Part shown: piece by piece, positions 4,821-63,945 of the stretch
How the letters are laid out: each line of letters opens with the position of its first letter
Position numbering within the stretch: the first letter of the stretch is position 1
Assembly: GCA_016748015.1 (NCBI GenBank)
Contig: JAAOMT010000483.1
Coordinates: forward strand, 186,001 to 250,000
Source of the DNA: Geosiphon pyriformis uo1
Lineage: Eukaryota; Fungi; Glomeromycota
DNA: 64,000 bases
Direction of reading: 5' to 3'
The notes under the pieces: model-generated
Told to the model about the DNA's origin: nothing
What the model saw: the letters and a program-made list of their open reading frames with translations, nothing else
The model's database searches: none
Position numbers and translations under genes: made by a program

Positions 4821-4859
4821 TTTTCTGATATTTCCTGTCACATTTACCATGTCTTTATA

Positions 4860-12602: not shown

Positions 12603-12604
12603 AA

Positions 12605-13479
12605 TGTTACAGGTGATTATTTCTGCTATCAAATCAAATAACAAATCTGTAACTTGGTGCTCAAAGCTAATTGCAGTTGATATTGATCTGAAGATTTAGT
12701 CTCTGAAGATTTTGGTTGAGTTCTTTGTATAATGGACAAAGATTCAATGGTGTCGATAGTAGATGTATTCTTCCAAGAGTTTTCCCAATTTCTTTTTCAG
12801 TGTGGTGGCCGGATTTAGTCTGGCAGTCATGCCCTTCTGGTAAGCTATCCGATAATATATATAAAATCCTACCCTTATTTCTGGGTCTTTTACCAGGCTA
12901 TCCTTGACATTAATAACTCAGCGCTTAATCTTTTAATCAATTAGTATACAACAACAAAATCAAAAAATGAAAGAAAATAAAATAAATAAAAAATAAAAGT
13001 AAAGAAAGTAAAGAAAATAAGCCAAGGCAATTTGGTCTGTTAGTATTTCGTCAATAGCTGTGATCAAGAGCTATTGTTTCAGCGTGGTTAAGTATCAATT
13101 ACTATCAACATGAAGTGTTAATAGTGAAGAGTAAATTGAGATATAGAATGATTATTTATTTGATGATTAGTTTCTTGGTTAAGGATTTTGTGGTATCGAT
13201 TCTGTCTTTTCTGTTTCTAACACTACTGCTATATATACATAATTGAGATTCCTCAATTTCTCAATTCTTTATGACAGAAATCCTGGAATTTTTGGAATCC
13301 TGCGATTTCTTTAAGAGGAATCTTGGAATTCTGGAATCCTGCAATTTCTCGTTGAGAATCCTGAAATTCCTGGAATCCTGCAATTCTTGAGAGGAATCCT
13401 GGAATTCCACATTTACTACGCTTACTTCTGATTGGCTAATAATTATTCTAATATAATTCCTATATTTCTATGAGTAACA
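12605..13479 (-). repeat. 5' LTR of element A
   Basis: 875 bp, followed by the PBS. Confidence 0.96.
13230..13237 (-). promoter_or_regulatory. Putative LTR TATA box (TATATATA)
   Basis: The context tatatatagcag is kept in the A, D, E, F and G LTRs although the flanking U3 sequence diverges. Confidence 0.6.
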
Positions 13480-22189: not shown

Positions 22190-22832
22190 TTTTAATATTG
22201 AGCTTTGTCGAAATTTTTATTTTGGATTAATTTTATTACTTCTCTTTCTAATACTGTTTGTTTAATTCTGGTTCTTATGTTTTCTACTTGTGAGTTATTC
22301 ATTCTTTCCTACTGGTTAATAATTATTGTTTTCATTTCTGAATGTAATAGGTTTTCTGAATAATTTTGAAATATGGTGTATAGTCAATAGATTGTTCTAG
22401 TGTTGAATTTGTTTTTTTTTTGATAAAGTCTTTAATTTGCTGTATTATTTCTTGATTGAATATTTTTTTGGATTTGTCAATATATAATTTCTGGATATTC
22501 AGCTTTTGTCTTAGCTAATAGTAACAGTATGCTATTGGAAGTTGTTTTGTTCATAACTTCTAGTTTTCTTTGGTTAGTTTCTTTGTTAGAATTATTCTTG
22601 GTTGGAATTATTCTTGGTATTTTTCCAAAAGTGTTTTTTACTTTTTTCATGATTTTATCTAACCAATATTTTGTTTAGTTCTGTGGTTGCTAATATGAAA
22701 TTTTTTTTCTCTTTTTGTGTTTTGATAGCAAATTGTTTGGTAGTTGATAACAATTTTCATGTTTAATTGTTGTTAATTTATGGCTTGAAATAGTTGTTAA
22801 GCCATTGTGTAAATATAATCTGGAATTTTCAT
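22190..22832 (-). pseudogene. ORF3 of element D
   Basis: ATG at 22832 gives MKIPDYIYTMA*QLFQA, homologous to ORF3 of elements A and F. Confidence 0.7.
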
Positions 22833-24593: not shown

Positions 24594-25606
24594 TGTTACT
24601 AGTAGAATTTTAGCTATTAATTAGCATGAAATTACCCTTATAATTCTTATAATTCATTAGTATATTAATGTCATTTCAAATTATCATTTATTATTTAATC
24701 AATTATCACATATCACGATTCAATTAAAATAATCTAATTAGTATAACAGAAAGTAAGATGATCAAATTACACAATATCCTGAACTTTGTAACATTCAGAA
24801 ATTCGCCGAAATTTACAGAAATTCGCCGAAATTTATAAGAAATTCGCCGAAATTTACAGAAATTCACCGAAATTATGAATAGTTCACCCAAATTAATTAA
24901 TAGTTCAGCAAAATAACTTGTAGTTCATCAAAATGTATCTTTAGTTTGCCGGAATTTGGGCAAAGAGAAAAAGTGCAAGTTCATAAACTAGTACTACAAC
25001 AAGTTGTATAAAAGAAGAGCTTTTCTCTTCTGGAAAATATATCTTACTTTAGATTTATCTCTTAAAACCGTTTATATACACACAAAAAGAAATAAAAATC
25101 AAATAATTCGAAAAACCAAATTCTTTAATTATTGTACTTAGAAAAACCCCCAAAAACCCAACTAACATTTCGAAATTGATTAGCTACCAATTTCAGTAAA
25201 CTGTTAGTGATTCCAGGCTTGGATAGAAAACGTTTCTCTTGACAAAATTCTATTTCTTTTACATTTCTTTTATTTTCCTTTTCTTTTCTTATTACAATCA
25301 TTAGGGTAGCCTACAGACAAGATTTCTGTAGAAGAGTTGACTTTCACAGCAAAGTAACTATACATTTTAGTGAGCTTCCAGATGAGCAATTCCTGGGAAA
25401 GAGTTGATGTTTACTACAACGTAACTACATAAAGTAACTGGCAAGGAATTGGCCATTCCACTTATAAGCCCAGCAGTTCAAATTATAGGAGATAATTTGA
25501 AGATAAATTCAGTTATTGGAGGTTTAACTACTTCTAGAAAACATGAATTCACAACAAACAGACATTAACAACATTTAAGAAAAGAGACCAAAAATCTCTG
25601 GTAACA
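24594..25606 (+). mobile_element. Solo LTR, family B
   Basis: TGTTAC..GTAACA ends; TSD GTGT at 24590-24593 and 25607-25610. Confidence 0.95.
24798..24894. repeat. About 20-bp tandem repeat GAAATTCGCCGAAATTTACA in the B LTR U3
   Basis: Four clear copies and one degenerate copy. Equivalent arrays lie at about 49330-49420 and 58280-58370. Confidence 0.9.
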
Positions 25607-27639
25607 GTGTTCTCTTCTATCTGGTCTTTTTTGTGACAACACTGCTTCCAAAACTTGTCCTAATGTATCAGTAGTAATAATAAATAATTTGCTGTGATCA
25701 AAATAAATTAGTACTAAAGCTTGAATAAGTTTGTTTTTTAATATGTCAAAAACTTCTTGCTGCTTTTCAGTCTATTCATATTTAGTGTTTTTGGCTTAAA
25801 GTTGATGAAATAATTGAGTCAGTTTAGAAAAGTTTTGGATAAAGCAGCAATAGTATTCAGCAAATTCCAAGAATGTTTTTAGTTCTGTGAAATTTGTAAG
25901 TACTGGAAAGTTTTTGACAATTTTAATCTTATTTGGACCTGTTTTGATGCTGTTTTTGTTTACAACATATTTCAAGAATTTCAGTTCTGTTTTGTTAAAA
26001 AAACACTTTATAGTATTCAACTTTAGTCTAGTTTTTCTTAGTCTTTTAAATACTTGTTGGAGATGATGAAGATGATTATTGAATGTTTTGGAAAACACAT
26101 TGGTATTATCTAAATAACCTACTATTGACTTCTATAGTAATCTAATATAGACAATTTCTATTAGTTATTAAAAAGTGGCTGGAATATTTATTAAGCTAAA
26201 TAATATTACATCAAATTCAAAGTTTTTTTTTCTGGTTGTAAACACTGTTTTTTCTTTGTTGGTTGATTCATGACTACTTGTCAGTAATCACTGTCTAAAT
26301 CCAAAGTGAAGAACCATTTTTTTTCTTCAAAAGCATTAAATAGTTTTTGAATTTGTGAAGTCAAATAGCTGTCTTTATAAGTCATACTATTAAGCTTTCT
26401 GTAATTTACACAAAAGCAGATTTTCCTATTTTTCTTTCAGATTAGTATCACTGATAATGATTATAGACTCATGAATGATTGAATTAATCTATTGTCCAAC
26501 ATTTTGTTGATTTTTTGTTGAATGATCTTATGGCTTGCTAGTAGTACTCTGTATGTTTTTTGTTTAATTGGCATTACATCTTCAGTTTTGATTTGGTGTT
26601 GGATAATATTAGTTCTGTTAAATTTCATTTTTACTTGTAAAAATGGCAGTAAAGTTGTTAAGTAGCATTTTGATTTACATATGTTAAAGTGGGTCTAGAT
26701 TTCCCAAATTCATTTGTTCTAATTGTTTTAATTGGAACAAATAATATTTTTTTCATTTGTATATTGTTTGTAATATAATATTCACATATCTGCAAAGTTG
26801 TAGAAAATCTGGAATGGTGTTTGATGATTGATCCTTAATCTTGGTGCTTAAATATTTGATGATGGTTTCACTTGGTATTTTGATAGTGTTTTCAGTTATA
26901 TTGTAGATAAAAATTTTGATGTATTTATTGTTTTTGGCTAATATGTAGAGATTAATAATTCCAATTCTTCCTGATTCATAAATTGTAGTCTTTGTTTCAA
27001 AAATCTGAGGTTGATCTTTTATTTTTCTCTCTATAATTAATATGTATTGGTTATATAACAAAATAAAAACTAAGTGACTGGTAAAAATAATTTCTCTCTT
27101 GTTAATGATTTCTTCCTCTGCCATATTAACTGGTACTTTTATTCTATCTGTAAATTCGAATTCATTTTTTTTTCTGGCTGTAATTCTTAATTTTTTTCTT
27201 GTTTCTGCTAATATTAACTAAGCTATTTTAACTAGAGATAAGAATATTGTTTGTGTTATTTTTTTATTTAGTTTAATAACATATTTTTTTTCTGAATTAT
27301 TTTGTAGTATTGCAATAATATTTTCTATATATTTTGCATCAATTATTCCTTCTCTAATGTTGATTTCCTTTTTCATTAAACTAAATCTAGATGCTAATTG
27401 AACTATTGTTATTATTGGAATTTTTATTGCTATTTTTAGATCTATATAAGTACACATATTGGATTTCAAGATAATGACATTTTTTTCTGAATATTTTAGA
27501 TTAAATTCTGTATTAATATTATGTGTGCATTTTGGCATAATATTTTTATTATTATTGCTGAATTATTTTAGTTTCTGCTTTATTAAAAGATCTAGAAGTG
27601 TAATATATTGTTTAGAATTGTAACCAGAGTTTAAATAAT

Positions 27640-34800: not shown

Positions 34801-35425
34801 AAATGCTTTTTTGGAAAAAAAAAACTGAAATTTTTAGGACACCTAATTGGTAAAAATGAAGTCAAATCTGATTCAAACAAAGTACAAAAAGTTAGAGATT
34901 TTTCAGTTCTAACTAATTTATAAAAACTAAGAAAATTCTTAGAACTGGCTGGATACTATTGTTAATTTGTTAAAGAATTCTCAGATATTGCTAAATCTTT
35001 TTACCACTTATTGTCAAAACATGTGCTGTACTTCTGGAAAAAAAAACAGTAAGAAGCATTTGATTACTTTAAACAATAATTGATTACAGCACCAATTTTG
35101 ATCTACTCCAACTTCAACAAAAGATTTATAATTGCAACAGATGTTTTAAAAAACACATTAGAAGTAGTTCTGTCTCAAATCAGACCAAACAACAGAAAAC
35201 ATCCAATTACATATACTAGTCATAACACAAATTCAGCAAAAAAAATATACAGTACAACAAATTTGGAATATCTTGTCATCTATTGAGTTATATACACATA
35301 AAAATACTATCTTAGCCAACTATTTGACATATATAATAATCATAAAAGGCTTATTTGGTTACTTAACAAACCACAACCAAAAAGAAAATATGTGTGATGG
35401 AGTACTTATTTGTAACAATTTCTAT

Positions 35426-38318
35426 TGTTACAGGTGAATATTTGGGATCTTAAATTAAATAACAAATCTGTAACTTGGTGTTCTATTGGTATATTGGTGA
35501 TATCAGTGATCTAAAGGTTTTATCAATCTGAAGGTTTTGGGTGGAATTCTTTGTATAATGAACAGAGCTTTGATGATTGTTCTATCAGTAATCTCTTGGA
35601 ATCACAATTTCTTTAAATTTTTTTCTTAGCATGATAACTGGTAATCTGACAGAGATGCTCTTTTGGTAAGCTATCCTTAAATTTTTAAATTCTTAATCCT
35701 ATACCCTTCTTTTGGGGTCTTTTACCAGACTATCCTTGATGTTAATAATTCAATGCTTAATCCTTAATTAATTAGTATACAACAATAAAATCAAAGAAAT
35801 AAAAAAAATAAAAAAATAAAAAAATAAGCCAAGGCAATTTGCAAATTAGTATCCCATCAATAGTTGTGATTAAGAGCTATTGTTTTAGTGTTATTAAGTA
35901 TCAATTGCTATCAACATGAAATGTTGATAGTGGAAAATGAATTTGAGATAGTGAATAATTATTTTATTGATTTGGAAGGTTGCTTAGATTAAATCTAAAC
36001 TGAGAGGTCTAAACTAAAAGAAGGGTTTTTTTTTTGTATTTTTAATAATTATGATTTGTAAGTCTAATTGATTTTGTTAGTCTAATTGACTCTGTAAATC
36101 AATTAACTCGAAGTCTTCTTGACTAATTTTCTAACTTCTAATACTACTGCTATATATATATAATTGAGACTCCTCAATTTCTCAATTTTTTACACCAGAA
36201 ATTTTGGAATTTCTGGAATCCTGCAATTCCTTTGAAAAAAATCCTGGAATTCTGAAATCCTGTAATTCCTTATATGAGAATTCTGAAATTCCACATTTAT
36301 TACATCTACTTCTGATTGGCTAATTTTATATGCTAATATACTTTTTATATTTTATAAGTAACATTATTCCCTTCTTTAATATTGAGCTCCTGTAAAATCT
36401 TCTAAATTTCTCTTTTGTATCAATTTTGTTGCTGTAATTTCTATTGCTATTTTTTAAATCTAATTTTTATATGTGACTGGGTTTTTAACTATAGTGGTCT
36501 GTTCAGAATATCCAAGTTTAAACCTTGTATCTGTATTATATGTATGTTTAAACATAATGCCCTTATTATTATCACTAAATTGAATTAATTCCTGCTCTGT
36601 TGTAAGATCTAGAAGTATGATAGATTGTTTAGTGTTTGAAGTGGAGTTTGAATTGTTGTTGGTGAAGTTTGAATTGTCATTGTCATTAATGGAGTTTGAA
36701 TTGTTGTCATCATCAGCAAAGTTTGAATTGGAATTATGTTCTGATTCTGATTTCTATTTGTTCTCGCTAATTGGCTCTTCTTCAAATATATGACACATGG
36801 GAGTGAATTGTGACTACATTCCAATATTCTGACTCAGAACTGTCAGGTGAGTTTTGCTAATTTATTGGTACTATGAAAATTAGATTTTATTGGGCTATTG
36901 GAGATAAGTTTTCTTGTAAGATAGTGGTATTTGGAATTTATCAAACTTTGAATGTTTGGGTTTTTGAATAATTCCTGGAGTTTGAATTGCTAGAGATTTA
37001 ACAAGTTTTATTAATGGTAAGTTTCTTTATATGATAGCAGAGTTAGAATTATTGGGTTTCAAATGTTTGGGTTTTTTTAATGATTGGGTCTTGAATAATT
37101 GGAGTTTTAATGAGTTTATTAAAAGTAAGTTTCAAATGTTTGGGGTTTTAATAATCAGGTCTTAAATATTCGGAGTTTTAATTTAACAATTTTTATCAAA
37201 GGTAAGTTTCAAATATTTGGGGTTTTAACATTTATGTTTTGAATAATCAGAGTTTTAATTTAACAAGTTTTTCAAAGATAATGCTAAAATAAGAATTTTG
37301 CAAATTCTAAGTAATTTTTCCTTGTTTTCTCTTGGTCTGTTACTTTCCTGCATAGTTGTTGCTGGTGCTGATTTTCTGTTGGATTATACCTCACAGGGAG
37401 CACCAAATGTTACAGATGATTATTTGGGATCTCAAATCAAATAACAAACCTGTAACTTGGTGCTCTATTGGTATATTAGTGATATCAGTGATTTAAAGAT
37501 TTTATCAGTCTAAAGGTTTTGGGTGGAGTTCTTTGTATAATGGACAGAGCTTCAATAATTGTTCTATTAGTAGCCTCCTAGAATCACAATTCTGTTAAAT
37601 TTTTTTCTTAGCATGGTGGCTGGTAATCTGGCAAAGATGCCTTTCTGGTAAGCTATCTTTAAATTCTTAATCCTATACCCTTCCTTTAGGATCTTTTATC
37701 AGGCTATCCTCAATGTCAATAATTCAGCACTTAATTCTTAATTAATTAGTATACAACAATAAAATCAAAGAAATAAAAGAAATAAAAAAATAAAAAAATA
37801 AGCCAAGACAATTTGCAAGTTAGTATCCCATTAATAGTCATAATCAAGAGCTATTGTTCCAATATGGTTAAGTATCAATTGCTATCAACATGAAATGTTA
37901 ATAGTGGAAAGTGAATTTGAGATAGTAAATAATTATTTTATTGATTTGGAAAGTTGCTTAGATTAAATCTAAATTAAGAGGTCTAAACTAAAAGGGTTTT
38001 TTTTTTATATTTTTAATAATTATGATTTGTAAGTCTAATTGATTCTGTTAATCTAATTAACTCTGTAAATTAATTGACTCAGAGTCTCTTTGACTAATTT
38101 TCTAACTTCTGATACTATTGCTATATATATATAATTAAGATTCCTCAATTCCTCAATTCTTCACATTAGGAATTCTGAAATTTCTGGAATCCTGCAATTT
38201 CTTTGAGAGGAATCCTGTAATTCCTCATACAAGAATCTTGAAATTTCACATTTACTATGTCTACTTCTAATTGGTTAATTTTATATGCTAATATACTTCC
38301 TATATTCTATAAGTAACA
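35426..38318 (-). mobile_element. Non-autonomous A-family LTR element G (2893 bp)
   Basis: LTRs 35426-36363 and 37408-38318; PBS TGGTGCTCCCTGTGAGG; PPT AAAGAAGGGAATAA; TSD CTAT/CCAT. The 1044-bp internal region has no RT or IN. Confidence 0.92.
36940..37280. repeat. Degenerate tandem repeat of about 75 bp inside element G
   Basis: Recurrent gtttcaaatgtttggggtttt...ggagttttaat units at about 36946, 37055, 37128 and 37206. Confidence 0.75.
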
Positions 38319-39852: not shown

Positions 39853-40624
39853 ATAAATCTTTTAAATCAAATTTTACAACTTTCAAAACAACTATTTAAC
39901 ACAATTTAACAATCTACCACTCAAATAAAAATCACAATTGATAAAAAAGAGATACAATACAAAAACAGGAGCAGAAAAGGGGTGAACAAAAGTTCAATTA
40001 GAACTGAATAATCTCATTTCTATAAACAATCTCTTATTCTAGTAATTAGTGCTTTACACAAAAATCAAGGAAAAAAAAAAGAAAAAAAGAAAAAAAAAGA
40101 TATGTTATAAAAAACACTTGACACAAATAAGAAGAAGAAGAAGGTAACAGAAATAGATATGTGTTGAATGAAACTCAAAAAATTAAAAAAGTTTTTAGCA
40201 GACTAATATTAGAACCAGTAATAAGAAAATGAACACCAGAAAACTCCAGAATGTGGAAAGAAAAATTTTTACTAGTATATTGGTTCTATAAGATTAGTGA
40301 ACAACTAAAATTGAGTACACTATACAAAAACCACAACTGTCAAACATTCAACAAAGTGGCTCTTAAACAAATAAAAAAATTTATAGGAAAAAGCAACCTA
40401 ACACTAAATTACAAAGCAGCATATCACTTATACTTAGCATTTAAATATTGTTTAGCCATATTACTAAACAGCTTATTAACAACCATTACAGTCAAAAATG
40501 TAAAATGAATGATGAATAATCAATTTAAAGATTTACAAAAAGCAATACTCAATGCTATAATCGAATACTATACAAAGAACACAGATTTTACAGATGCATA
40601 TGATTTCACAAAAGCTCAATTCTA
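39853..40624 (+). pseudogene. ORF3 of element C
   Basis: Begins INLLNQILQLSKQLF..IKITIDKKEIQY. ORF 40251-40508 reads YWFYKI...AAYHLYLAF..AILLN. Homologous to ORF3 of elements A and B. Confidence 0.72.
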
Positions 40625-40638
40625 AAAGAGAGAGATAA

Positions 40639-48614: not shown

Positions 48615-49622
48615 TGTTACTGGAGGTTTTTGGTCTTTTTTCTTGAATGTTGTAAATGTCTATTGGTTGCAAATTCACGTTTTCTAGAAGTAGTTGAACC
48701 TCCAGTACTAAATTTATCTTCAAATTATTTTCTATAATTTGAACTGCTGGGCTTATAAGTGGAATGGCCAATTCCATGCCAGTTACTTTGTGTAGTTATG
48801 TTGTAGTAAACATCAACTCTTTTCCAAGAATTGCTCATCTGGAAGCTCACCAAAATGTGTAGTTACTTTGCTGTAAAAGTCAACTCTTCTACAAAAATCT
48901 TGTCTGTAGGCTACTCTAATGATTATAGTAAAAAAATAAAAGAAAATAAAAGAAATATAAAAGAAATTGAATTCTGTCAAGGGAAACGTTTTCTATCCAG
49001 GCCTGGAGTCACTAATAGTTTACTGAAATTGGTAGCTAATCAATTTCAAAATGTTAGTTGGATTTTGGGGGTTTTCCAACTGCAATAATTAAAAAATTTG
49101 GTTTTTCAAATTATTTGATATTTTTTTTTTTTTGTGTGTGTAAGAATAATTCTAAGTAATAAATCTAAAGTAAGATACATTTTCTTGAAGAGAAAAGCTC
49201 TTTTTTTATACAACTTGTTGTAGTACTAGTTTATGAACTTGTACTTTTTCTCTTTGCTCAAATTTTGGCAAACTAAAGATACATTTTGATGGACTACAAG
49301 TTATTTCACTGAACTATTGATTAATTTGGGTAAATTATTCATAATCTCGGCAAATTTCTATAAATTTCGGTGAATTTCTTATAAATTTCGGTGAATTTCT
49401 GTAAATTTCAGCGAATTTTTGAATGTTACAAAGTTCAGAATATTGTGTAATTTGATCATTCTACTTTCTATTATACTAATTAGATTATTTAATTGAATTG
49501 TGATATGTGATAATTGATTAAATAATAAATGATAATTTGAAATAATATTAATATATTAATTAATTATAGGAATTATAAGAGTAATTTCATGTTAATTAAT
49601 AGCTAAAATTTTACTGATAACA
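48615..49622 (-). repeat. 3' LTR of element B
   Basis: Direct repeat of 57566-58573. Confidence 0.96.
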
Positions 49623-50310
49623 TAATCTCCTTCTCAAAACTGAGCTCCATCGAAGTCCAAGCACTATCTGTGATATTGAGATAGTGATCTAAAATAATTG
49701 AAGTAATCTGGTCTGAAAATTGTTGAAATTTCAGTTCTGTGAGTTTGCCAATGTATTGAACTTTCATTGGTTGTAGTATTGGATTTTGTAGAATATTTTC
49801 ACAAGTATTAAACAAATTATAGAGTCTAAAAGCTGTTCTAAGTTTGTAGCGAGTGTTTGTTGGTCCAGCTGCTGTTTTGAATTTATTATGAATTTGTTTT
49901 TGTATAGCTTCAGGAGTGAGATTTGTTGTTTCAAGTTCCAGTTTTCGTTCATAAAGTGTCTTTCTAATGTAAAAGTATTTATAGATAGGGGTGTGTTCAT
50001 TGTTCTGTTCATTGAAAAGTAGTAGAAGTTTTTGTTGTATTGTAGCATTTGGTGGAATGTCAATAGGAGCAATTAAAAGATTTTTTTTTAGTGCTTGCTT
50101 CAAAAGTCTTGGTAACCTATTTTCAGAGTGACTTCTTGTTTTTTTTCTATAGGGGTGATAGTTTTGTAAATGATTTACTACTGGAGCTGTGGTTTCTTTC
50201 TGAATGTAATTAATTTGACTTCTATTAATTGTTATGGATAAGTCAGGAAGTGTTTTCAAGGCTAATATTAACTTTTGGGATATTTGTTGAATATTTCAGG
50301 GAATAATTAT
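49603..50310 (-). pseudogene. ORF3 of element B, best-preserved copy (218 open codons; inferred about 235 aa)
   Basis: ORF 49603-50259 extends 17 codons upstream in frame to an ATA at 50310, with one TGA (probably from CGA). It runs through the PPT into the LTR. Confidence 0.8.
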
Positions 50311-50469
50311 GATAAAATTGACTAATTATGAAAAGAGAGAATAAAGAAAATTATTTTTCAATATGGAGTTTTTATTTGTTTTTGGGTTTGGGTGTTTTTT
50401 GTAATTATTTACTATTTTTTGTTTTTGTGTTTTTATTAAAGAATTATTGTAAAATTTAAGTGTTCAAGT

Positions 50470-53400
50470 TTGGTTGTTGTTCTATTATAATTATTGGTTC
50501 TAAATTTCGGGGAATATCTTCAGGATTAATTAAAAAGGAATGTGTACCAATTTGTGGAATTAATGGTTCAGGATTGTTTCTCGAATGATAGTGTTTCAAT
50601 TTGTCTCCATGTGCAACTTTTGCTAGTATTTTATCATCAAGTCTTAACTTGTATGATCTATTGCCTAAAATTTCGTGAATATAAAATGGTTCATCCCATT
50701 TGTTTTCAAATTTTCCACTCTATTGTTTTTTAGTCTTAGTTCTGTGTAAAAGAACTTTATTTCTAACTTTAAATTCATTAATAATGGGTGGTAATTTGTT
50801 GTCATGTCTTTCTTTTTGTTGAGCTTGAAAATGTTCAATGTGAGTTGCTGCTATCTTTCTTTTTCCTTCTAGTGTACTGAAAAGAGTGTAGGCCTTTCTT
50901 TAAAGTGTTTCTTGAAAGTTTTCTTCATTGATTGGTTGCACTGGGTATGTTTCTACTGTGAAATTATTTGGTAATATTGCTGTCTTTCCATAAGTAAGGT
51001 CAAATGGTATGTGTTTTGTAGTATCTTGTTTTAGTGTTCTGTATACTAGTAACACTAATAGAATAAAGATATCCTATTTCTGCTCAAAATCTGTTGAGAC
51101 TTTGGCCAATGATTCACACAATGTTCTGTTGAAACATTTTACAAGTCCATTTGTTTGAGGGTGATAAGGTGATGATAGAGGTCTTTTGATATTGAATTAT
51201 TCACAAATTTCTTGTATCAAGTTGTTCACAAAATGTGTTCCTTGATCAGATAAAAGTTCAATTGGACATTCATGTCTACAAATAATGTCTTCATAGATGA
51301 AATTTGCTACTGATTTTGCATCTGCTTTTTGGATGGCTCTAGCTTCAGGCCATTTAATAAGATAATCTACTACTACTGCAATATAGCAATTTCCTTGGAT
51401 TGTGATAGGTAATGGTCCGACTAAATCAATTCTAACTCTGTCAAATAGTTGTCCAACTTTGATTGGATTTAAAGGTTCTGTGAGGCGAGTTCCTCCTCTT
51501 TTTTGATAACTATCACAAGATTCTACATATTGTCGAATGTCTTTTTGCATGTAAGGCCAAAAATAATATTCAAAAGTTTTTTGAATTGTTCCATCTCTTC
51601 CCAAGTATGCTGAAGACAGATCTGTGTATATGTTATATAAAATTGTTTCTTTTTCATTTTCCTGTACTAATCTAAGTGGTTGGTTTGGGTTTTTACAATT
51701 TTTGTAATAAATTTTGTTGTGGTATATAAAATATTGTTTGGATTGGTATTGTAATCGATGTTTTTCACTTGAGGACCAATTTTCTGGCATGGTGAGAGTT
51801 TTCAAATAGTTTTTAATGTTGTTGTAGTTTTTTGGATCTATTGTTGTTGATTTTATTGTTTGTTCTACTGTTAAGTTTGTTGGTGTTAATGTTGGTATTA
51901 ATATTGTCTCATCCTTAAGAGGCTGTTAACATTAATGTGTATTTTTTCTGGTTTGTGATGTACAATATATTTGTAGTCTGCTAAGAAGTCATTCTATTGA
52001 GATTGTTTGGCACTTTGTTCAGTTTTTTTTTTATTGAGCCATTTGAAACCAATATTGTCAATTATGATATCAAATTCTTTTCCATTCTTCAGATATTGTT
52101 AAAAATGTTTAAGAGCCCAGATAACTGTAGCAGTTTCTAATTCAGTTGAGCCATATTTTAGTTCTGTTGGTTTGAGTGTTCTACTAGTATAGATAATGAC
52201 TTGTTTTTGCCTATTTTCATCCAATTGTGATAAGATGGCACCAAATGCTATGTGTAAAGCATTAGTGGCTAATTGGAACTGTTTGTTGAAGTATGGATAA
52301 GCAAGAACTGGAGCTGTTGTCAATTTTGTTTTGAGAGTTTCAAAAGCTTTTTGTTGTTCTTTAGTCTATTTGTATGGCACATTTTTGTTGGTAAGATAAT
52401 TAAGTGATTTGGCAATTTCTGAGAATCCTTTTATGAATTTTCAATAATAAGAGACTAATTCTACAAATCTTCATAGTTCTGTAGTATTTCTGAAAGTTTG
52501 AAAGTTTTTGACAGCACTGATTGTTCCAGGATTTGATTTGACTTCATCTTTATTAACTATGTGTCCAAAAAAGATCAAGCTTGTTTTTCCAAAGTGACAT
52601 TTTTCAATGTTTAACTTTAATTCTGCTTTTTGTAATCATTGAAAAACTTCTCGCAGGTAAATGAGGTGGGCTTCAAAGCTTGGTGAGTATATATTAGTGT
52701 TATCAAGATAGACAACTACTAATTGCCATAAGAGCCCTTTATATACAACATCTATGAGTCGCTGAAATGTTGCTGGTGCATTGCAGAATTTAAAAGGCAT
52801 AACATTGAACTCATAGTTTCCTTCTTGGGTGGTAAATGCTGTTTTGGGTTGGTTTTTTGTGTCCATTTTGACTTGCCAGTATCTAATTTCTAAGTCCAAA
52901 GTTGAGAAGAACTTGGCTTTTTCTAAAGCATCTAACATGTTATCAATTCTTGAAAGAGAGTAAGCATCTCCAATTGTTACACTGTTTAATTGGCAATAAT
53001 TAACACAAAATCTGATTTTTCCATTTTTTTTTTGACAAGGACTACTGGTGAAACCCAAAGACTTCTTGATGGTTGAATTAATCTGTTATTAAACATTCTC
53101 TGGACTTCTTTTCTGATGAATTGGTAATTGGCAGGTGGCACTCTGTAAGCTTGTTGACGTTTTGGTGAAGTATCTCCTGTATGGATTTGATGTTGAATGA
53201 TATCCGTTTTTTCCAGGTCATTGTTGTCTTTTGCAAATATATCTGCAAATTCAGCTATCAATTGTTTCAATTGTCTTTGTTGTTGAGGTTCTAAGAGATC
53301 CATGTTGATATGAGAGAGTTTTTTTTCCAAAAAATGGTAGTTTTCAGTAGTGAGAATAATATTTGGATTTGGAAGTAGAGTGTGCCTTACAATTTCGATA

Positions 53401-55560
53401 AAATTAGAGACAATTTGAGGGTTTTCATCTTGAAAAATATTGCTGTGTATGATTCCAATCTCTAATTTGTTTAATAAGACAATAAGGTAATTATTGGGAT
53501 TGTAGAATATAACTCAAAATTTTTTCATTTCTTTGGAAATATAAACATTTGGAATTGAGATTTCATGCTTCAAACAGATTTGTTCATTGGATTCAAAGAA
53601 TTGTTGAGTAGTAGTGGGTTTTGAGCAAGTGTAAATTTTGTGATGTTTTTCAAAAGGTGAAATGGTAATTGGTTGGGGAAGTTGAAGAATCTGGTGAAAT
53701 TCATTTTGTATTTTAAGGGCTATGTTTACTGGAACTGTAAATCGTCCAATTGAACCAAAATTTTAAGTTCCTCTTTCACTTTTTTCCAATTGTTCTCTGT
53801 TGTTAACTGATTGTAGACTCGAAATATTGATTAAGGGTAGGTAAATTGCTTGAGCAATTTTTTTAGCATGTTTAATTTTGAATGGTTTGTCTGTTTCATT
53901 CTGCAACATGATGGTAATGTCTCCACTGTATTCTGCATCTATAACTCCTCCTCTAATATTGATTTCTTTGCTTGCCAATAATAATCTGGAGGCAATTTGA
54001 ACCATTACTCCAGGTGGAATTTTAAGAGCGATTTTGAGATTGATTTTTGTTAAAGACTTTGGTTGGAGAACCAAAGTATCTTTTCCTGGGTATCTTAGGT
54101 TATATCCGGCATCAATTTCGTGTGCTTTTTCTGGTCTGATTCCTTGGCCATGGTTGTCAAAATATTTAAGTTGTAGAGGTGGTTGCTTTTCAAGGAGATA
54201 GATGGGGGTGGTTGGTAGTTTTTCTACTAGTTTGAATACTCCAAATTCGATTTCATTTTCATCATTCTCCTTTGGCAGAAGAATGCTAAGAGCATAGCAT
54301 TCTGGACACCATTTGTCATCACAAGGCATGATGTATTCTTTGCACAATTGAATGTTCATTTGCTCTAATCATTGAATTTGAGCTTCTTGAGTCGGGTATA
54401 TGTGGCTTGCAATTTGGTGGTAGGTTTCTACTTTATCTTCATAATCAAATTCAGCTAATTTCATGGTATACTCAATGTATTCAGCTTCTTTTATTTGGCA
54501 GACATTTTCTTGGGTGGCTTCATTGATCAATGCCATTGCTAGGTCAAAAATCATTTTAGCATCATGAAGGTAGTGGTAAAATTTATTGAGAGCACTGTTG
54601 TATGCTGCATCAAATGGTGTTCCTCTTCTGACTTTTTCCGAAATTGATAGAGCATATTGACAGGTTTGATCACATACTCCTCTTCTCATTACAACATCAA
54701 TCTAGTTGCATTCTTCTGGTAACATATCTCCACATGTAAGGCAAAGTGTGTTGTCCCATTTTTCACTTCTTTTTGGAGATCCAAATCGTTCTCTATGACA
54801 TGTTTTACAAAAGTAATAGATACAAGTTTCATATTCCTCTTCTGGAGAAATACATGCTTCCATTGATAAAAGTTTCTTGTTGCAATCTTTGCATTTGAGT
54901 GGAATATAGGGTGGTTGTTTCTATAGTTCTGGTGTAGAATATCTAACTTTCTTCCATCCTCTTGATTCTTCAAAAATCTCCTGTTCTGTTTCTTCAGCCC
55001 AATTGGATGTTGATCCAAAAGCCATGTAGGTTTCAGTAAGTGGCATTTTTTTCTCCTCTTCAAATTCAAATACTGGGGCTTTTTCTGATTGTTTGTTAAA
55101 GATACCACAAGTAGCAAATACTATGGTGTATTGTCCTTGGTATGAGATTTTTAATTCCTAAGTTTCTCAGTCCAAGTTTGCATTGGCCTTAAGAAGCCAA
55201 TCATTTCCAACCAGAGCTTGGTATTGGGGTGCATCCATGACTAGAACTTTGACTGGAATGGTGATTCTATCAATGGTGAATAAAAAATTGTCAATTTCTT
55301 CTACTGGTGTCTTTTTCATACCATCTGCTATAACAATTACAGTTTGGGCTGGTCTGTTAACAGTTCTTTAAAACTGTTGTATTAACTGGTAGGTAATAAT
55401 ACTTCTAGCTGATCCACTGTCTAGAATTAGTCGGATGGGTTTTCCTTCTACTGTAGCTTCAGTATACATGGCAGTGATAGCTTTTTGTTCATTAGCTGCT
55501 GCATTATTAAGCAAGAATAGTGATTCATTTGCTTCAAATTCGAATGGGAATATATTTGAA
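50470..55560 (-). pseudogene. pol: pol of element B (PR, Cys-rich domain, dUTPase, RT, RH, IN)
   Basis: PR LILDSGSARSII; RT VVYLDNTN; RH LATNA and ETATVIWAL; IN IDLVGPLP, LLSDQGTHF and WDEPF. Confidence 0.94.
53745..54115 (-). pseudogene. dut: dUTPase domain within pol of element B
   Basis: Motifs DAGYNL, ASR, GGVIDAEYSGDI, KIAQAI and ERGT*NFGSIG. Confidence 0.9.
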
Positions 55561-55749
55561 AGGTTGGCATTTGGGCAATTTGAACTGGTGGAATAGTGTT
55601 GTTGGAAGAGTTTGATCTGGGTGCTGCAACTTCACCTTTAGAAAGTGCAGATTGTTGAAAATCCGATTCCTCTGGTATTGTAAGATAACTGGGTTGAGTG
55701 TAATAGTAATTGGGTCTTTGCTGACCAGAATTTCGGGGAACCAACTGGT

Positions 55750-57520
55750 TATTTAGATTAATTCTGTTGTTGTTATTCTGAAATTGATTTTGGAGTGTGA
55801 ATTGGTTATGTTAAACCAATCTTCTTGCTGGTACTTGATATTGTTGAGTGGGTGGTATCTAATATTGCTGAATTGGTAAAGATTGCTGATATTGTTGTTG
55901 AATTGGTTGTGGAGCTGGTTGATAATAGCTGTTTTGAATTTGTGGTCTCAGTGAATAATAAGTTGGTGGTGGAAGTTGGTAATAAGATTGTTGTGGTGAA
56001 GAGTAACATTGATTACTCCTGTTTTGTTGATCTCTTTGTAGTTTCCTGCAATCTCATTTCCAGTGTCCTGAAATTCCACAATAGTAACAATTTTGAGGTT
56101 GGTTGTTGGATGGTGGTCTAAAGTTGTTTTGGTTGTGTCACTGTGGTGGTTGATATTTTTGTGGTTGTTGCTGCTGTTGTTATTGGTTTGTAAAATAGCT
56201 TTCAACCTTCTTTGTGAGTTGGTCTATCTTTTCTTCAGCTGCTGAACTGGTTTCTTCAATAGCCAAGTTAACAAGTTTGGTGTGGTTCATTTCTTCTATA
56301 GCCATTTCATAATTTTTTGCATGTCTAATGGCAGTTGCTAAGTCTGCTGGAACATGTAGACGGACTTTTTTAATCAGTTTGTCTTTTAACCTTGCTATAA
56401 ATTGATCTAGAATTTGAGCATCAGAATAGTAGTCATTGGTTTCTAATTGTCAAATTTGTTTGAGAAGTTTGTTGAATCTTCCAAGATAGGTCATAACAGT
56501 TTCAGATGTTTCTTGCTTAATATTGCAAAAGCGGTTTCTAAGAGTGATAGAAGTGTTGTTGTCAGTGAATTGTTGTAGAAAAGCATCTTTAAATGCTTGC
56601 CAGTTTTCAAATAATTCTTCTAAGTTTTCAAACCATTCTTCTGTAGTTCCTTGGAGAAAGTATAGAATTGCTTTGAGCATTCTTGCTGCATTCCAACCAT
56701 TTGCATCTCCTGCTTTTTGAACTTTGTCAAGCCATTCTTGAGAACTGGTATCATTATTTTTACCCATGAATTCTGGAATCTTTGCAATATAAGCAGTTGC
56801 CATTTCTTCTTCATTTTCTGTGGCTTCTTTTGGTTCTGGTTCAGTTTCTTCACTTTCCAAGCTTTCTGAATGATTACTTTTGTTTTTCTGTAAGTAATCA
56901 ATAATATTGGCACTTGTTGATATTGGTTTCTGTTGTTGAGTAGAATTTCTAGATGACTGAAAATCTTCTGGTCTGGAGAAATGGTCAAGTGGTAAACTTG
57001 GTGTTTGTGGTTGAATAAGTGAAATTGGAAATGATGTAATAGAAAGTGGTAATTTGACACTGGTTCTTTGTTCAGGTGTTTGCAAGTGTTTGGCAGTTGT
57101 CTTTGGTAGTATTGGAGTGTTTGGAGTGGTTCTTGAGTATTGTTTCACTTTTTGTTTGCCTTTGTTGCTTGTCTCTGTTTCTAATTCAAAGTTAAAAGAA
57201 TATTTGGGCTGTACTGAGTATTTTTCTTCACAGTATTCAATAATATTAAAATTAAGTTCTTGGAAGTAGGTAGCAAGTGTTTTACTGTTCAGGTCTTCTG
57301 TTCCCAATTGTGAATAGTGCACTAAATTATTGTAGAGATTGCTTCTAACTTTTGAAATGTTGTAGTTTCTAAAAAGATAATTATTGATGCGATTTTCAAT
57401 ATATTGGTATACTGATTTCTTGACAACTTCAATTCCGTCTGAGATGTTGAATTTTTGCTTGCAGTGAGTGTAAATTGACTGATGATACTCTAGAGTTGTT
57501 GTGTCTGGTGTGGTCACCAC
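55750..57520 (-). pseudogene. gag: gag of element B
   Basis: 356-codon open segment containing AYIAKIPEF..QEWLDKV; knuckle CYYCGISGHWK*DC at about 56047-56090. Confidence 0.9.
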
Positions 57521-57565
57521 TTTGAATTTGTTGTTGCTGTGTTATTTCTATAGGAGAGCACCAAA

Positions 57566-58573
57566 TGTTACCAAAGGTTTTTGGTCTCTTTTCTTGAATA
57601 TTGTAAATGTCTGTTGGTTGCAAATTCACGTTTTCTAGAAGTAATTAAACCTCCAGTACTGAATTTATCTTCAAATTATTTCCTATAATTTGAACTGCTG
57701 GGCTTATAAGTGGAATGGCCAATTCTGTGCCAGTTACTTTGTGTAGTTATGTTGTAGTAAATGTCAACTCTTTCTCAGGAATTGCTCATCTGGAAGCTCA
57801 CCAAAATGTGTAGTTACTTTGCTGTAAAAGTCAACCCTTCTACAGAAATCTCGTCTGTAGGCTACTCTAATGATTATAGTAAAAAAATAAAAGAAAATAA
57901 AAGAAATATAAAAGAAATTGAATTCTGTCAAGGGAAACGTTTTTTATTCAGGCCTGAAGTTACTAACAGTTTACTGAAATTGGTAGCTAATCAATTTCAA
58001 AACATTAGTTGGGTTTTGGGGATTTTCCAACTGCAATAATTAAAGAATTTGGTTTTTCAAATTATTTGATATTTATTTCTTTTTGTGTGTATAGGAATAG
58101 TTCTAAGTAATAAATCTAAAGTAAGATATATTTTTTTGAAGAGAAAAGCTTTTTTTTTATACAACTTGTTGTAGTACTAGTCTATGAACTTGCACTTTTT
58201 CTCTTTGCTCAAATTTTGGCAAACTAAAGATACATTTTGATGGACTACAAGTTATTTCGCTGAACTATTGATTAATTTGGGTGAACTATTCATAATTTCG
58301 GCAAATTTCTATAAATTTCAGCGAATTTCTTATAAATTTCAGTGAATTTCTGTAAATTTCAGCGAATTTTTGAATGTTACAAAGTTCAGGGTATTGTGTA
58401 ATTTGATCATCCTACTTTCTGTTATACTAATTGGATTATTTAATTGAATCATGATATGTGATAATTGATTAAATAATAAATGATAATTTGAAATAATATT
58501 AATATACTAATTAATTATAGAAATTATAAGAGTAATTTTATGCTAATTAATAGCTAAAATTTTACTGGTAACA
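57566..58573 (-). repeat. 5' LTR of element B
   Basis: Followed by the PBS at about 57548-57563. Confidence 0.96.
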
Positions 58574-58577: not shown

Positions 58578-61500
58578 CAATACTCTCATGGAATGACAAA
58601 GAGAAGGGAAAAAAAAAAACATATCTGAAGAAACCACAGCCATTAAAGAAATAGATAGTGATTGGAGAAAATTATACTCAACCAACACTAGACTAAAATC
58701 ATTATATATACTATTAAAATGTAAGGATTGTAGGAAAAAACTGTCTTTTATAAGAGCTTGGGTTGTGTCCAATAAAGACTATTGAACATAAACCCATTAT
58801 TACTGCAAATTATGTCATAGAAAATATTATGGTTACTTTAAACAATAAAAAAAGTAAAACAATGAACTATGTTTTGCTTATAGAGAGCAGTTGCTCGATA
58901 AAAGAATGTGAAACAACATTCCTGGTTGAGAAGAAATATATAATGCTTTGTGCCAATATACAATCCTCATAAGTGATTGGGTAAGTCATAGAACACTTAT
59001 TAATGCAGCATGGCATCAAACAATCTCTTACTTGGACAGTTATTTACACAATAAAGATGAAATTTGGAGAATAGTAAACACCAAAGTCAAAGACACATTG
59101 CCCAGTAAAATTCTGAAAATCAAAAACAATCTACCAAAACCAGTAGAAACAATTCACATTTTCAATCCTAATGCTTTTCTGGATGTTAAAACTGGTTCAG
59201 AAGAATTCCACAACTATTGCCAAAACTTGGCACTGATTAAAAAAAAGCAAGAACAGCATTTAAAACAATTAAACACCCAATTATGTGACCATTATTTAAT
59301 TCTATATAACTTTTAATATTGTAATAAGTGTAATCTTATTTACAATCTACCACCATGCATGATTTACACAATCTCTAAAGAAGAAAAACCAATCAACAGC
59401 TGTGCATCAGAATCAGAATCAACATTCAATTCTGATTCAAACTCTAACAGCAATAACAACAATAGCTCCAGTTTTATTCAAAATGACAATAATAATACTG
59501 ACAATTCAAACTTCGATTCAAACCTTGAACAATACATCACACTTTCTAATCTCTCTAAAGAGCAGAAACTAAGATGGTACAGCAACAATAATGAAGGTAT
59601 TATGTCAAAACGTGTACATAATATTAATGCAAAGTTTGATTTGAGATATCCTGGAAAAAATGCCATTAAATTGAATCACATTTGTGCACATGTATTGATT
59701 TGAAAATAGCACTAAAAATTCTAGCAACAACAATAGTTCAGTTAGCATCCAAGAATAGTTTAGCAAAAAAAGAGATTAACATCAAAAGAGGAATAATTGA
59801 CATAGGATATATAAGAAATATTATTATAATGCTACAAAATAACTTAAAAAAGACCTATATTATAGAACTAAACAAAAAGATAGTATAAACAATATTTCTG
59901 CCTCTGGTTAAAATAGCTCAGTTAGTATCAGTAAAAAACAAGAAAAAATTAAGAATTATAACAAGAGGGATAAATGAATTTAGATTTACAGGTAGGGTAG
60001 ATGTATCAGTTAATATGGCAGAAGAAAAAATTATTAACAAAGAAGAAATTATTTCTATCCATTAATTATTCTCTATTCTACCATATAATCAGTACATATT
60101 AGCAATAGAAAGAAAAATAAAGGATCAAGTCCAGATTTTTGAAGTCAAATCAAACATTTGTGAGTTAAGAGAAATTGGACTTACCAATCTTTATATACCA
60201 GCCAAAAACCATAATCATATCAAAATTCTCATCTACAATACAACAGGAAATATTATTGAAATACTAAAAGGAACCACCATCAGATATTTAAGCATTGAAG
60301 TTAAAGAACAACCACCAAACCCCATTTCAGACTTTCTACAACTATGTGGATATGTGGATATCACATCATAAACAATATATAAACGAGAAGAATGTTATCT
60401 ACTTCAACTAAAACAATTAGAACAGATAAACTTGAAAAATTTAGACCCATTACAACATATGTAGCTTAAGATATTACTTAACAACTTCAACAACATTTTT
60501 GCCAGTAAAAATGAATTTGGCAGAACTAATATAATCTAACATTAAATCAAGACTGGAGATGCAATGCCAATCAAACAAAGAGCATACCAAGTACTACCAG
60601 CAAGCCAGAAAATTATTTGACAAAAAATCAATCAGATATTAGACAATAAGTTAATTCAACCATTAATAAATCCATAATTATTACCAGTAGTACTAGTCTG
60701 TAAAAGAATAGAAAGATTCACTTTTGTGTGGATTACAGAAAACTCAATAGAGTAACTTATAAAGACAGTTATCTAACTCCACAGATTCAAGAATTGTTTG
60801 ACACTTTTGGAGAAAAGAAATAATTCTCAATATTGAATCTAGACAGTAGTTATTAACAAGTAGCTATAAATTCAGCCAATAAAAAGAAGACCACATTCAC
60901 AACAAAAAAAAAATTTTGAGTTTGAAGTAATGCTATTTGGCTTGATAAACACTTCAACCATGTTTTAATGGCTCATAGAAATTGTCTATACCAGACTGCT
61001 ATAGAAATCAGTAGTTATATATCTGAATGACACCAATATATTTTCAAAAACATTTGATGATTATTTTTATTATCTACAGCAAGTGTTTAAAAAACTCAGA
61101 CATGCCAAATTAAAATTAAATGCAAACAAGTGCTTTTTTAACAAAACAGAACTGAAATTCTTAGGACATATCATGAGCAAAAATGGCATCAAAATAGATC
61201 CAGACAAAATTAAAATAGTCAAAAACTTTCCAGTACTAACCAACTTGATGGAACTAAGAGTATTTTTAGAATTTGCAGGTTATTACTGCCACTTCATTAA
61301 AGACTTTTTTAAACTGGCTCAACCACTTCACTAGCTTCAAACCAAGAATATTAAATACAAGTGAACAAAAATTCAGCAAGAAGCTTTCAATATATTGCAA
61401 AAAAAGCTTATCTAAGCATCAGTACTGATCTATTCAGATTACAACAAATCATTTATCATCACTACCAATGTATTAGATTAAGCATTGAAAGCTGTATTAT

Positions 61501-63252
61501 CTCAGAGAAAACTGGATGGAAGAGAACATCCAGTAGCATATGCCAGTTGAAGTTTAAGTCCAGCAGAAAAAAACTATAAAACACCAGTGCTAGAACACTT
61601 AACTATTTACTAAGCAGTTATCAAATAGAAGAAATATTTGAGCCAAAAGTTCAATGTATATACTAATCACAAGGGATTGACTTTAATTCAGAAACAAAAA
61701 TTCAGAGATGATTGCCATGCAAGATAAAAAATAGAATTATCACTATTCAATTATATAGTGTATTATAAAAAAAGAAAAAAAAAACAGAAATACTAATGGT
61801 TTGTTACAAATAAAACAAATCTGAGAACATTTCAACTCAAAAATATAACAAAAAATGAATTCACAAAAATATCAACAACTTCAACAATATATTGATACCC
61901 AATTGTTCAAAGAAAAATTATTTCAAAAAGAACAAAGCAACATAAAACAACAATCCAAATATTTTATCAACCACCAAAATATATTATATTGAAAAAATAA
62001 AAAAGATCCAGACCAATTACTTAGAGTAATTACAGAATCAAAAAAAGAAACAATACTATTTAATATGTACTCAAATTCAACAGCAAAACATTTTCATAAA
62101 GAAGCAACTATAGAAAGAACCAGAAAAAGATACTATTGGCCATCCATATATCCAGATATTATTTAATATGTTCAAAATTGTAATGCTTGTTAAAGAAGAG
62201 GAGGAACAAGACCCAGCAAGCCATTAAGACCAATTAAAATAGAACAACCATTCAATTGTATTGGAATTAACTTAGTCAGACCACTAACAATTACCAGCAG
62301 AGAAAACAGATATATTGCAGTAGCTATAAACTATCTCACAAAATGGCCAAAAGCAAAAGCAATTCAAAGAACAAATGCAAAATCCATTACCAAATTCATT
62401 TATCAAGACTTAATTTAACATAGATGTCCAAAAAAATTGTTATCAGACCAAGGAACTTACTTTGTGAACAGAATATTGGCAGAATTAAGTCAAAGATTTT
62501 GGAATTAAATGACCATTATCATCACCATATTATCCACAAACCAATGGTTTAGTTGAAAGATTCAATAGAACACTATGTGAAACAATTGCTAAAATCAGTC
62601 AAAAAACCAGGACAAATAAGATTTGTTTATACCATCAGTATTATTTGCTTATTGAACAATAAAGCAAGATACTACATAAACAATACCATTTAAATTGGTA
62701 TATTATAGAACAGCAACACTATTAGTCGAAATAAAAGTCAAGACATATCTAATTGAACCAATAACAGAAGACAATTTTCAAGAAACATTGTTGAGAAAAA
62801 CATATAACTTAATAGAAATACTAGAAAACAAATAACGAAAAACAGCTAATAACATCCAAAAGTTACAAAAAAAACAAAAAAAATGACATAATAACCAATT
62901 ACCAGATAAACCAGTTGAATTTAGGATTGGAAACAGAATACTTTTACATTATACCAAAGTGGAAAAACAATGGAGTAGAAAATTTGACCCCAAATAGAAT
63001 AGACCATTTCACATAAAAAAAATTCTAGGGAATAAAGCTTATAAATTAAGATGGAACAACAAAATCTTAACCAAAACAGCACATGATAATCGACTAAAAC
63101 TCTATTACCACACACCATTATTTACCAATAATATTCCACAACTGGGAGTACAAAGAATACTAGTAAGACCAGATAAGATTCCACAAGATTTAGAACCAAT
63201 TATATGCATTGAAACAAAACACATTGATCTGATTTACCAAAACAATATATAA
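58578..63252 (+). pseudogene. pol: pol remainder of element F (Cys-rich domain, dUTPase about 59620-59995, RT, RH, IN)
   Basis: dUTPase NAKFDLRYP and ASKNSLA..RGIIDIGY; RT IYLNDTN; integrase collinear with element A. Confidence 0.9.
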
Positions 63253-63285: not shown

Positions 63286-63945
63286 ATGAAAATTCCAGAC
63301 CATATTTATCAACTAGCACAACAATTATTTTAGGCCATAAATTAATAACAAACAGACATAAAAATAATGATCAATCATCAAACCATCTACTATAAAAACA
63401 CTAAAAAAAAAGGAAAAAGACTACACTATATTAATGAACACACAAAAAAATTAGCAATAATATTAACAAAATTGTTAAGAAAGTAAAAAGCACTCTTGAA
63501 AAACCAACTGTTATTGTCTAATTAAGAAAAATGATAACAGAAAATTGGAATCAATGGATAGAACAATTTCCAGTTTTATATTGCTATTAACATTTGGAAC
63601 AAAAATTAATAATTCAGAATTTATATATGGATCAAACCAAAAAAGTCTTTGATCAAAAAATTATACAAGACATAGAAAACTTTATTGAAAAGAAATCTAA
63701 TTCGGATATATACATCAAAACTATCTACCAAATATACACATCTTTCAAGACTATCCAGAAATACTATTACAATCAGAAATTAGTAGCTTATCTGTTAATC
63801 AATGGGGAAAAATAACCAACAGCCAGTTTAAGAAACTCCATAGAACAATAGATAAAATAATTTTAGAAAAGAAAGTTATGGAATTATTACAAAAAAAAAT
63901 ATTAGGAGATTTTGATGGAGCTCAATATTAAAAAGGAGAAAATAA
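63286..63945 (+). pseudogene. ORF3 of element F
   Basis: ATG at 63286 gives MKIPDHIYQLAQQLF*AI...; later NWNQWIEQFP and IQNLYMDQTKKVFD. Confidence 0.75.

Follow-up and report, generated by a model that had tools for sequence, protein, structure and literature searches.

A conserved accessory gene between integrase and the 3' LTR of Ty3/Gypsy retrotransposons in Geosiphon pyriformis encodes a predicted soluble helical protein

Accessory genes in described LTR retrotransposons

What the accessory ORFs of LTR retrotransposons do, where they are not env, is an open question (PMC7264820). Plant elements such as Athila and Bagy2 carry a sense ORF, termed aORF-3S, between pol and the 3' LTR, and maize Grande carries gene23, which is described as encoding a nuclear protein and having its own promoter (PMC7264820). 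Among fungal Gypsy elements, an 'add. ORF' of unknown function is marked in the legend to Fig. 3 of PMC2864245, Boty has one also (PMC7264820), and PosPlaTy3-5 has a dUTPase between protease and RT (PMC2864245). Bdelloid LTR elements combine a dUTPase with third ORFs that are not env and that encode GDSL esterases, DEDDy exonucleases or small membrane proteins (PMC5408684). The VANC proteins are family-specific anti-silencers of VANDAL transposons (PMC6719617). PMC3248453 and PMC8778642 contributed nothing here on a third ORF.

The gene examined here, ORF3, is carried by Ty3/Gypsy elements in a 64,000-nt stretch of the Geosiphon pyriformis genome (hereafter, the window). It shares slot and strand with the aORF-3S of Athila and Bagy2 and is likewise retained over copies and families, but many aORF-3S products are described as env-like with membrane segments, whereas ORF3 has none and is fungal (PMC7264820). 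Like Grande gene23, it belongs to no known family and lies in the 3' internal region, and a nuclear product and a promoter of its own would be further points in common if the reading given below holds; gene23 differs in being antisense and from a plant, and the two are likened by description, not by sequence. The elements of PMC2864245 share with ours an additional ORF and, in PosPlaTy3-5, the placement of the dUTPase, but they are, again going by description, chromoviruses from other fungal groups, whereas ours have no chromodomain match and a separate integrase. The bdelloid elements resemble ours in bearing a dUTPase and a non-env third ORF, yet their third ORFs are of known enzyme or membrane types, and no enzyme family matches the Geosiphon ORF3 (PMC5408684). 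With VANC the likeness would be one of role, namely an accessory protein whose targets are the family-specific repeats of the element that encodes it; VANC serves Arabidopsis DNA transposons, and we saw no sequence or fold match to it (PMC6719617).

An initial annotation of this DNA held that fungal Ty3/Gypsy elements normally lack a third ORF, which is overstated given the additional ORFs already published (PMC2864245, PMC7264820). For ORF3 itself, our search, made outside Repbase, the Geosiphon genome papers and the supplement of PMC2864245, found no published description. ORF3 is a real, old and undescribed protein family in a known kind of slot.

Layout and decay of the elements

Decayed LTR retrotransposons lie nested within the window, which is part of a genome that consists of 41.2% LTR sequence (PMC11952901). 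Elements A and B are full length (Table 1), and C, D and F are partial or interrupted. The initial annotation grouped them into three divergent families; the window holds four (A, B, C and D/F). A and B have the hallmarks of Ty3/Gypsy LTR elements, with TG...CA ends, the PBS TGGTGCTC, a PPT and 4-bp duplications. Pfam matches follow the domain order of the superfamily (gag, protease, RT, RNase H, integrase), and the full layout adds a Cys-rich insert and then a dUTPase between protease and RT, a stop between RNase H and integrase, and ORF3 after integrase. The nearest solved structure to the RT of L001, a metagenome contig carrying a related element, is that of Ty3 (E 6e-47; next, 2e-20). Identity with Troyka was rejected, which requires CG...CG termini and a 3-bp duplication (PMC12440569).

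Table 1. Coordinates of ORF3 and associated features in the window (positions on contig L001 are marked as such)
Feature	Position	Strand	Remarks
Element A, full length	3301-13479	-	LTRs 3301-4175 and 12605-13479; 4-bp duplication ACAT; gene order as in B
Element B, full length	48615-58573	-	Paired TG...CA LTRs, PBS, PPT; 4-bp target duplication GCAG
3' LTR of B	48615-49622	-	TG...CA; 20-nt tandem repeat in U3, about 49343-49418
5' LTR of B	57566-58573	-	PBS TGGTGCTC at 57556-57563
B gag (long N-terminal extension, capsid, CCHC)-protease-Cys-rich insert-dUTPase-RT-RNase H	51898-57555	-	Decayed
B integrase	50456-51841	-	Own ORF, past the stop that ends RNase H (about 51898-51900)
Stops after RNase H	6320, 24300, 38390, 51898, 61823; L001:772-800		Frames differ between families
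dUTPase, protease-RT interval, all families	7808-8908, 27218-27562, 53766-54368, 59317-59703		Confirmed by Pfam for A and B
ORF3 of A	4189-4820	-	4 stops, one frameshift near 4430-4460
ORF3 of B	49603-50310	-	230 open codons (49603-50295); crosses the PPT and runs 20 nt into the 3' LTR
ORF3 of C	39853-40625	+	Heavily decayed
ORF3 of D	22192-22832	-	Heavily decayed
ORF3 of F	63286-63931	+	Decayed
Cis motif GGAGCTCA, then PPT, of B	49626-49648	-	GGAGCTCA itself at 49641-49648
Further GGAGCTCA copies	about 4196-4203, 63918-63925; L001:3091-3098		Just upstream of PPT
TATA-type motif, A	4855-4861	-	41 nt before the ATG of ORF3; possible internal promoter
TATA-type motif, C	-48/-46 from ORF3 start
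TATA-type motif, D	-44/-42 from ORF3 start
TATA-type motif, F	-40 from ORF3 start

In all six elements examined (A, B, C, D, F and L001) a stop follows RNase H at an equivalent position, with a new start 10-60 nt downstream, and this recurrence indicates that integrase is a separate ORF. In the usual Ty3/Gypsy layout integrase lies inside the Pol polyprotein; the arrangement found here departs from it and is a variant layout, no ground for exclusion from the superfamily. The tail of the L001 integrase has no chromodomain match at E 0.1 and only a weak match to SH3_Tf2-1, and the integrase tails in the window, compared by eye, end shortly past the same motif as that of L001. The C-terminal integrase chromodomain that marks chromoviruses was thus not found.

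The two LTRs of A differ at 54 of 882 sites, 52 of them by transitions, and those of B at 59 of 1008, 58 by transitions. This excess points to decay by cytosine deamination, and divergence so dominated by transitions makes ordinary dating unsafe.

Several other features of the elements were recorded. The dUTPase is retained in a genome that bears the marks of C-to-T decay. Between protease and dUTPase, A and B have a Cys-rich region with several CxxC pairs and a helical stretch (about 9000-9480 and 54300-55000, both minus strand). Their Gag proteins have N-terminal extensions of about 250-340 codons without a Pfam match (11550-12590 and 56800-57541, both minus strand), and the two extensions look unrelated. 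Family B has also left solo LTRs at 24594-25607 and 18608-19578, with 4-bp duplications GTGT and TTGG, the former of which splits the RT-RNase H region of element D. Flanking the LTR elements, at 260-2188 (minus strand) and 14049-18526 (plus strand), are decayed ORFs that by eye resemble pieces of non-LTR retroelements, with ORF1-like, endonuclease-like and RNase H-like stretches.

Conservation, selection and predicted fold of ORF3

The initial annotation had placed a separate ORF of about 210-260 codons between the end of integrase and the PPT in A, B, C, D and F. These coordinates are correct, and the reading frames span 210-257 codons, but only that of B is open. Even there the start reads ATA and codon 5 is TGA, positions at which the relative P0003 has Met and Arg; the frames of A, C, D and F contain stops and frameshifts, and all five copies in the window are inactivated. 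Of the 17 in-frame stops scored, 13 stand where intact relatives have Gln, Trp or Arg, as expected from C-to-T/G-to-A decay.

The similarity noted between the families is significant and stands far above the control. A profile built from A-family proteins alone scored 239 bits on A, 81 on F, 68 on D, 47 on C and 10 on B, with a best score of 0.1 bits on the reversed window. Profiles of the A and B families aligned over 185 columns in hhalign (probability 92.9, E 3.7e-7), and P0208, from a fifth family that has no copy in the window, matched all five ORF3 places by tblastn (E 6e-20 to 7e-8). Searches by tblastn straight from B were weak (C, E 0.001; A, E 0.003). Identity between families is 16-48% in the ORF3 core, against 45-68% in integrase. 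The conserved positions comprise Y-x-Y/F-x-I/L-G, a turn Asn, A-x-x-R-L/I-x-x-x-F and G-K/R-I/L-T, and core residues are conserved over ten family representatives. Homology of ORF3 thus spans at least five Geosiphon families and two metagenomic ones.

The C-terminal halves had also been reported to align. The shared last residues are the translation of a DNA motif, GGAGCTCA, together with the PPT, which A, C, D and F read in one frame; B and L001, whose ORF3 extends into the LTR, read it in another. Protein conservation of the last residues was therefore ruled out as an effect of this cis motif. Kept whatever the reading frame, GGAGCTCA is likely a cis signal for reverse transcription or packaging.

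The B copy has 196 homologues, and among the matches listed all 120 are Geosiphon pyriformis hypothetical proteins; a fragment of the A copy has 66, all annotated in the same way, and both counts are of annotated proteins, not of whole-genome copies. At least 262 annotated 'hypothetical proteins' of G. pyriformis (196 + 66) are pieces of one transposon gene, and naming ORF3 corrects the Geosiphon gene catalogue. A combined A and B profile, searched against 1.84 billion representatives, gave 105 matches, of which 103 are named as Geosiphon element copies or resemble them (19 named, 79 at least 70% identical to such, 5 at 54-69%) and 2, P0220 and P0223, are full-length metagenomic proteins with close relatives P0281 and P0282. 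No host gene was among the 105. Nor was there any member of the expanded hypothetical families of mycorrhizal fungi that the initial annotation had named as similar; as the profile was built from A and B only, remoter mycorrhizal kin may exist. In the Atlas, three clusters without a name score 0.84, and two of these come from Mucoromycota; they could represent mycorrhizal families or the family of ORF3 itself. Searches of IMG/VR with ORF3, integrase and the PPT motif gave no relative, and tblastn against phages returned nothing real. The metagenome contig L001 carries, in order, RT-RNase H, the stop, integrase, a 316-nt spacer, P0223, a PPT and the start of an LTR. Its ORF3, P0223, is intact at 230 aa, and open full-length frames are also found in P0220 and P0282.

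Because decay corrupts transitions, selection was gauged from transversions, with the ratio of their rates at 0-fold and 4-fold sites taking the place of dN/dS. By this measure ORF3 gave a ratio of 0.47 between A and F (52/362 versus 16/52, p 0.005) and of 0.37 between A and D (47/356 versus 18/51, p 0.0003), bearing out the earlier suggestion that it is selected. The corresponding ratios were 0.33 (p 0.08) and 0.15 for integrase and 0.11 for RT-RNase H; LTR controls in an arbitrary frame gave 1.28 and 0.54 (p 0.09), so that one control is not clean. ORF3 is under purifying selection, weaker than that on pol.

In the LTR control that pairs 3301-4175 with 35425-36400 (p 0.09, arbitrary frame), transversions by codon position numbered 16, 19 and 33, a skew that could have arisen by chance or could reflect a remnant of coding sequence within the LTR. 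A separate observation concerns 4-fold transversion divergence between A and F, which is 0.045 in integrase (5139-5915 versus 62190-62980), 0.27 in RT-RNase H and 0.31 in ORF3; this unevenness hints at recombination between families.

Unrooted trees were built from 6 integrase rows and from 15 of 32 ORF3 alignment rows, chosen as family representatives. In the integrase tree B and L001 form a group (support 100) to which A, D and F do not belong; in the ORF3 tree A, D/F, E and C group together (support 99), and B, L001 and the ENA proteins stand outside. Both trees thus part B and L001 from A, D/F and C, a match that fits inheritance of ORF3 from an ancestor of the lineage and gives no date for it.

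The absence of any membrane segment, also suggested from the first reading, held across the family as judged by hydropathy. No stretch of 19 residues reached a Kyte-Doolittle value of 1.6 in 120 B-family proteins (maximum 1.5) or in 9 others (maximum 1.33). The signal peptide and transmembrane anchor expected of an env protein are thus absent by hydropathy, ORF3 proteins have only 1-3 cysteines, and at 209-239 aa and all-helical by prediction they are unlike viral fusion proteins, of which no match was listed in the Pfam, PDB or BFVD searches. In the full-length model (pLDDT 74) a short helix and a beta-hairpin at the N-terminus, both of low confidence, are followed by a basic linker predicted to be disordered, and the C-terminal half is helical. 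Modelled alone, the core, about 130 residues in seven predicted helices, reached pLDDT 91.6 and pTM 0.84. Hydropathy, transversion ratios, core model and tree match agree with the initial annotation of an ancient, selected, soluble, helical accessory protein other than env, and we are highly confident that ORF3 is a real, selected, non-env accessory gene.

ORF3 matched no described Gypsy domain or env family in Pfam, PDB, BFVD or Foldseek searches, in keeping with its first description. Pfam, PHROGs and NCBIfam gave nothing at cut-off, PDB sequence searches gave a best E of 0.04 in one and nothing in the other, and Foldseek against PDB and BFVD gave nothing at E 0.001. The best Z scores in VIA-align were 5.4, 6.0 and 3.8, that of 6.0 being to an unrelated designed protein. 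The best PHROG was phrog_23683 (E 4e-4; 6 of 28 members, all of the B family; function unknown), which occurred in none of 30 genomes. Matches to Glypican, importin-5 and FtsQ (in 8 of 28, with 16 bits where the cut-off is 366) were rejected as due to chance.

Weak matches nonetheless converge on one type of helix-turn-helix. The Pfam family DUF1016_N aligned across the helix-turn-helix stretch of 2 B-family proteins at E 0.037-0.12 (13-15 bits against a cut-off of 32.8), and Atlas clusters for DUF6192, DUF3102 and DUF1016_N scored 0.83-0.86. Among 50 structural rows were KorB (1r71; Z 4.3, 95 aligned, rmsd 5.0), Spo0J (1vz0; Z 4.2, 92 aligned, rmsd 4.7) and ParB-parS (6s6h; Z 4.2, 56 aligned, rmsd 2.5); the KorB and Spo0J alignments cover nearly the whole core, and 28 rows outrank KorB. 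Profiles that we built from fetched loci for DUF1016_N (78 sequences) and ParB (29 sequences) matched each other (probability 82, E 1e-5), which makes these weak leads a single superfamily; for DUF3102, 30 genomes yielded 1 match, not enough to build one. ORF3 aligns to both profiles in the same register, with the same helix order and Gly-led turn. These alignments are not significant (DUF1016_N, probability 1%, E 0.049, 1 of 60 shuffles higher; ParB, E 0.42), and global alignments to either showed no gain over shuffles. ORF3 also differs from the ParB/KorB and DUF1016_N proteins in having no ParB CTPase or nuclease domain and in being carried by a eukaryotic retroelement. The helix-turn-helix is a lead, not membership.

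Possible functions of ORF3

TATA-type motifs precede ORF3 in four of the five copies. Their spacing is held in A, F, D and C despite linker gaps of non-triplet length, with a chance of 1-6% per element, a figure to be read in light of the interval of -55 to -35 having been set after the matches were seen and of the relatedness of A, D and F. Element A contains only 4 such motifs in 8.4 kb. None lies within 200 nt upstream of ORF3 in B, and in L001 the only one is at -126. The pattern in the four copies suggests that ORF3 may have its own promoter. The B, D/F, E and metagenomic proteins, unlike those of the A and C families, further contain a basic Pro-Tyr linker, which may resemble the consensus of a nuclear-import signal. 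Short repeats, specific to each family and arranged in tandem in U3, occur in the LTRs of A, B, C and L001. Repeats in U3 are common in LTRs generally.

From these features we propose the following mechanism. A conserved accessory gene of this Ty3/Gypsy lineage, lying in the interval between integrase and the 3' LTR and encoding a predicted soluble helical protein, would be transcribed from its own internal promoter. The protein would enter the nucleus and bind the DNA of its own element, with the LTR repeats as candidate sites, presumably through a ParB/KorB-like helix-turn-helix formed by a helix, a turn of G-[KP]-[TN]-N and a second helix with A-x-x-R-[LI]-[YH]. Binding would then switch on or protect the element. 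The role of trans-activator or anti-silencing factor offered in the initial annotation is plausible. We hold the whole mechanism, a separately transcribed nuclear DNA-binding regulator that promotes or protects expression of its own element, as a tentative reading that falls a little short of probable. One point against the DNA-binding step is the acidity of the three metagenomic proteins tested, whose pI values of 5.2-5.9 are unusual in a protein that binds DNA.

The function of an accessory ORF becomes testable here, given an intact protein with a confident model and candidates for both its promoter and its binding sites. If the mechanism is true, a fungal retrotransposon would possess an activator or anti-silencer that binds DNA, in parallel with complex retroviruses and the plant VANC proteins. 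A broader view would make early-diverging fungal Ty3/Gypsy elements the envelope-less likeness of complex retroviruses, with a separate integrase gene and an internally promoted regulator, derived from the ParB/KorB helix-turn-helix of prokaryotic mobile elements, that co-evolves with family-specific LTR repeats and helped the elements to fill much of the Geosiphon genome despite heavy C-to-T mutagenesis; we regard this as doubtful.

ORF3 could instead be a cofactor of integration or of the particle, binding integrase, Gag or the element's RNA or cDNA and aiding nuclear import or target choice in place of a chromodomain. Its position directly past integrase, the matching trees and the L001 integrase tail without a chromodomain match would all fit such a role, and chromatin-linked helical domains are among the top structural rows (CHD1 C-terminal, Z 5.4; Orc6, Z 5.9), although scores of this size are noise-level for helical bundles. 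Moreover, the ORF3 of A, C and F shares the frame of integrase, 20-30 codons beyond a stop, and the annotated copy P0158 reads from integrase into ORF3 with no stop. Against this, ORF3 of D is out of frame, the linkers of A, F, D and C differ by gaps whose lengths are not divisible by three, and the spacer measures at least 145 nt in B, L001 and L002, a second metagenome contig in which another ORF lies within it. On these grounds a conserved integrase-ORF3 fusion was rejected, and we consider the cofactor role unlikely.

The evidence for a separately expressed, selected, soluble protein would serve equally well for a repressor, through which each family limits itself or controls its copy number. 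The proteins behind the weak fold leads, KorB and ParB, are themselves repressors. The very high copy number argues in the opposite direction, with 196 + 66 annotated ORF3 copies in a genome so rich in LTR sequence (PMC11952901), and self-limitation seems to us distinctly less credible than activation or protection.

A role in spread between nuclei or hyphae, as an env substitute or a coat-like RNA-binding protein, would fit the place of ORF3 in the env slot, and a closterovirus coat cluster appeared in both Atlas queries (0.82 and 0.91, the latter the top row for P0220). That match shares 138 of 256 features, under the tool's mark of 170, with 1 of the 10 best named matches agreeing; the listed structural rows include neither a coat protein of filamentous RNA viruses nor a fusion protein, and the protein lacks hydrophobic segments and is poor in cysteine. 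Such a role is very unlikely. That ORF3 is a captured host fragment and functionless passenger, as the inactivation of all five window copies and its much faster divergence than pol might suggest, is largely refuted already by the depletion of replacement-site changes, the open full-length frames of L001 and P0220/P0282, the core residues conserved across families, the confident predicted fold and the lack of any matching host gene, and we give it almost no credence.

The L002 contig runs from the end of integrase through a spacer and an extra ORF of about 128 aa to ORF3. The extra ORF (L002:424-811) has no Pfam match and lies 110 nt past a TATA motif, and this sub-lineage may carry two accessory genes.
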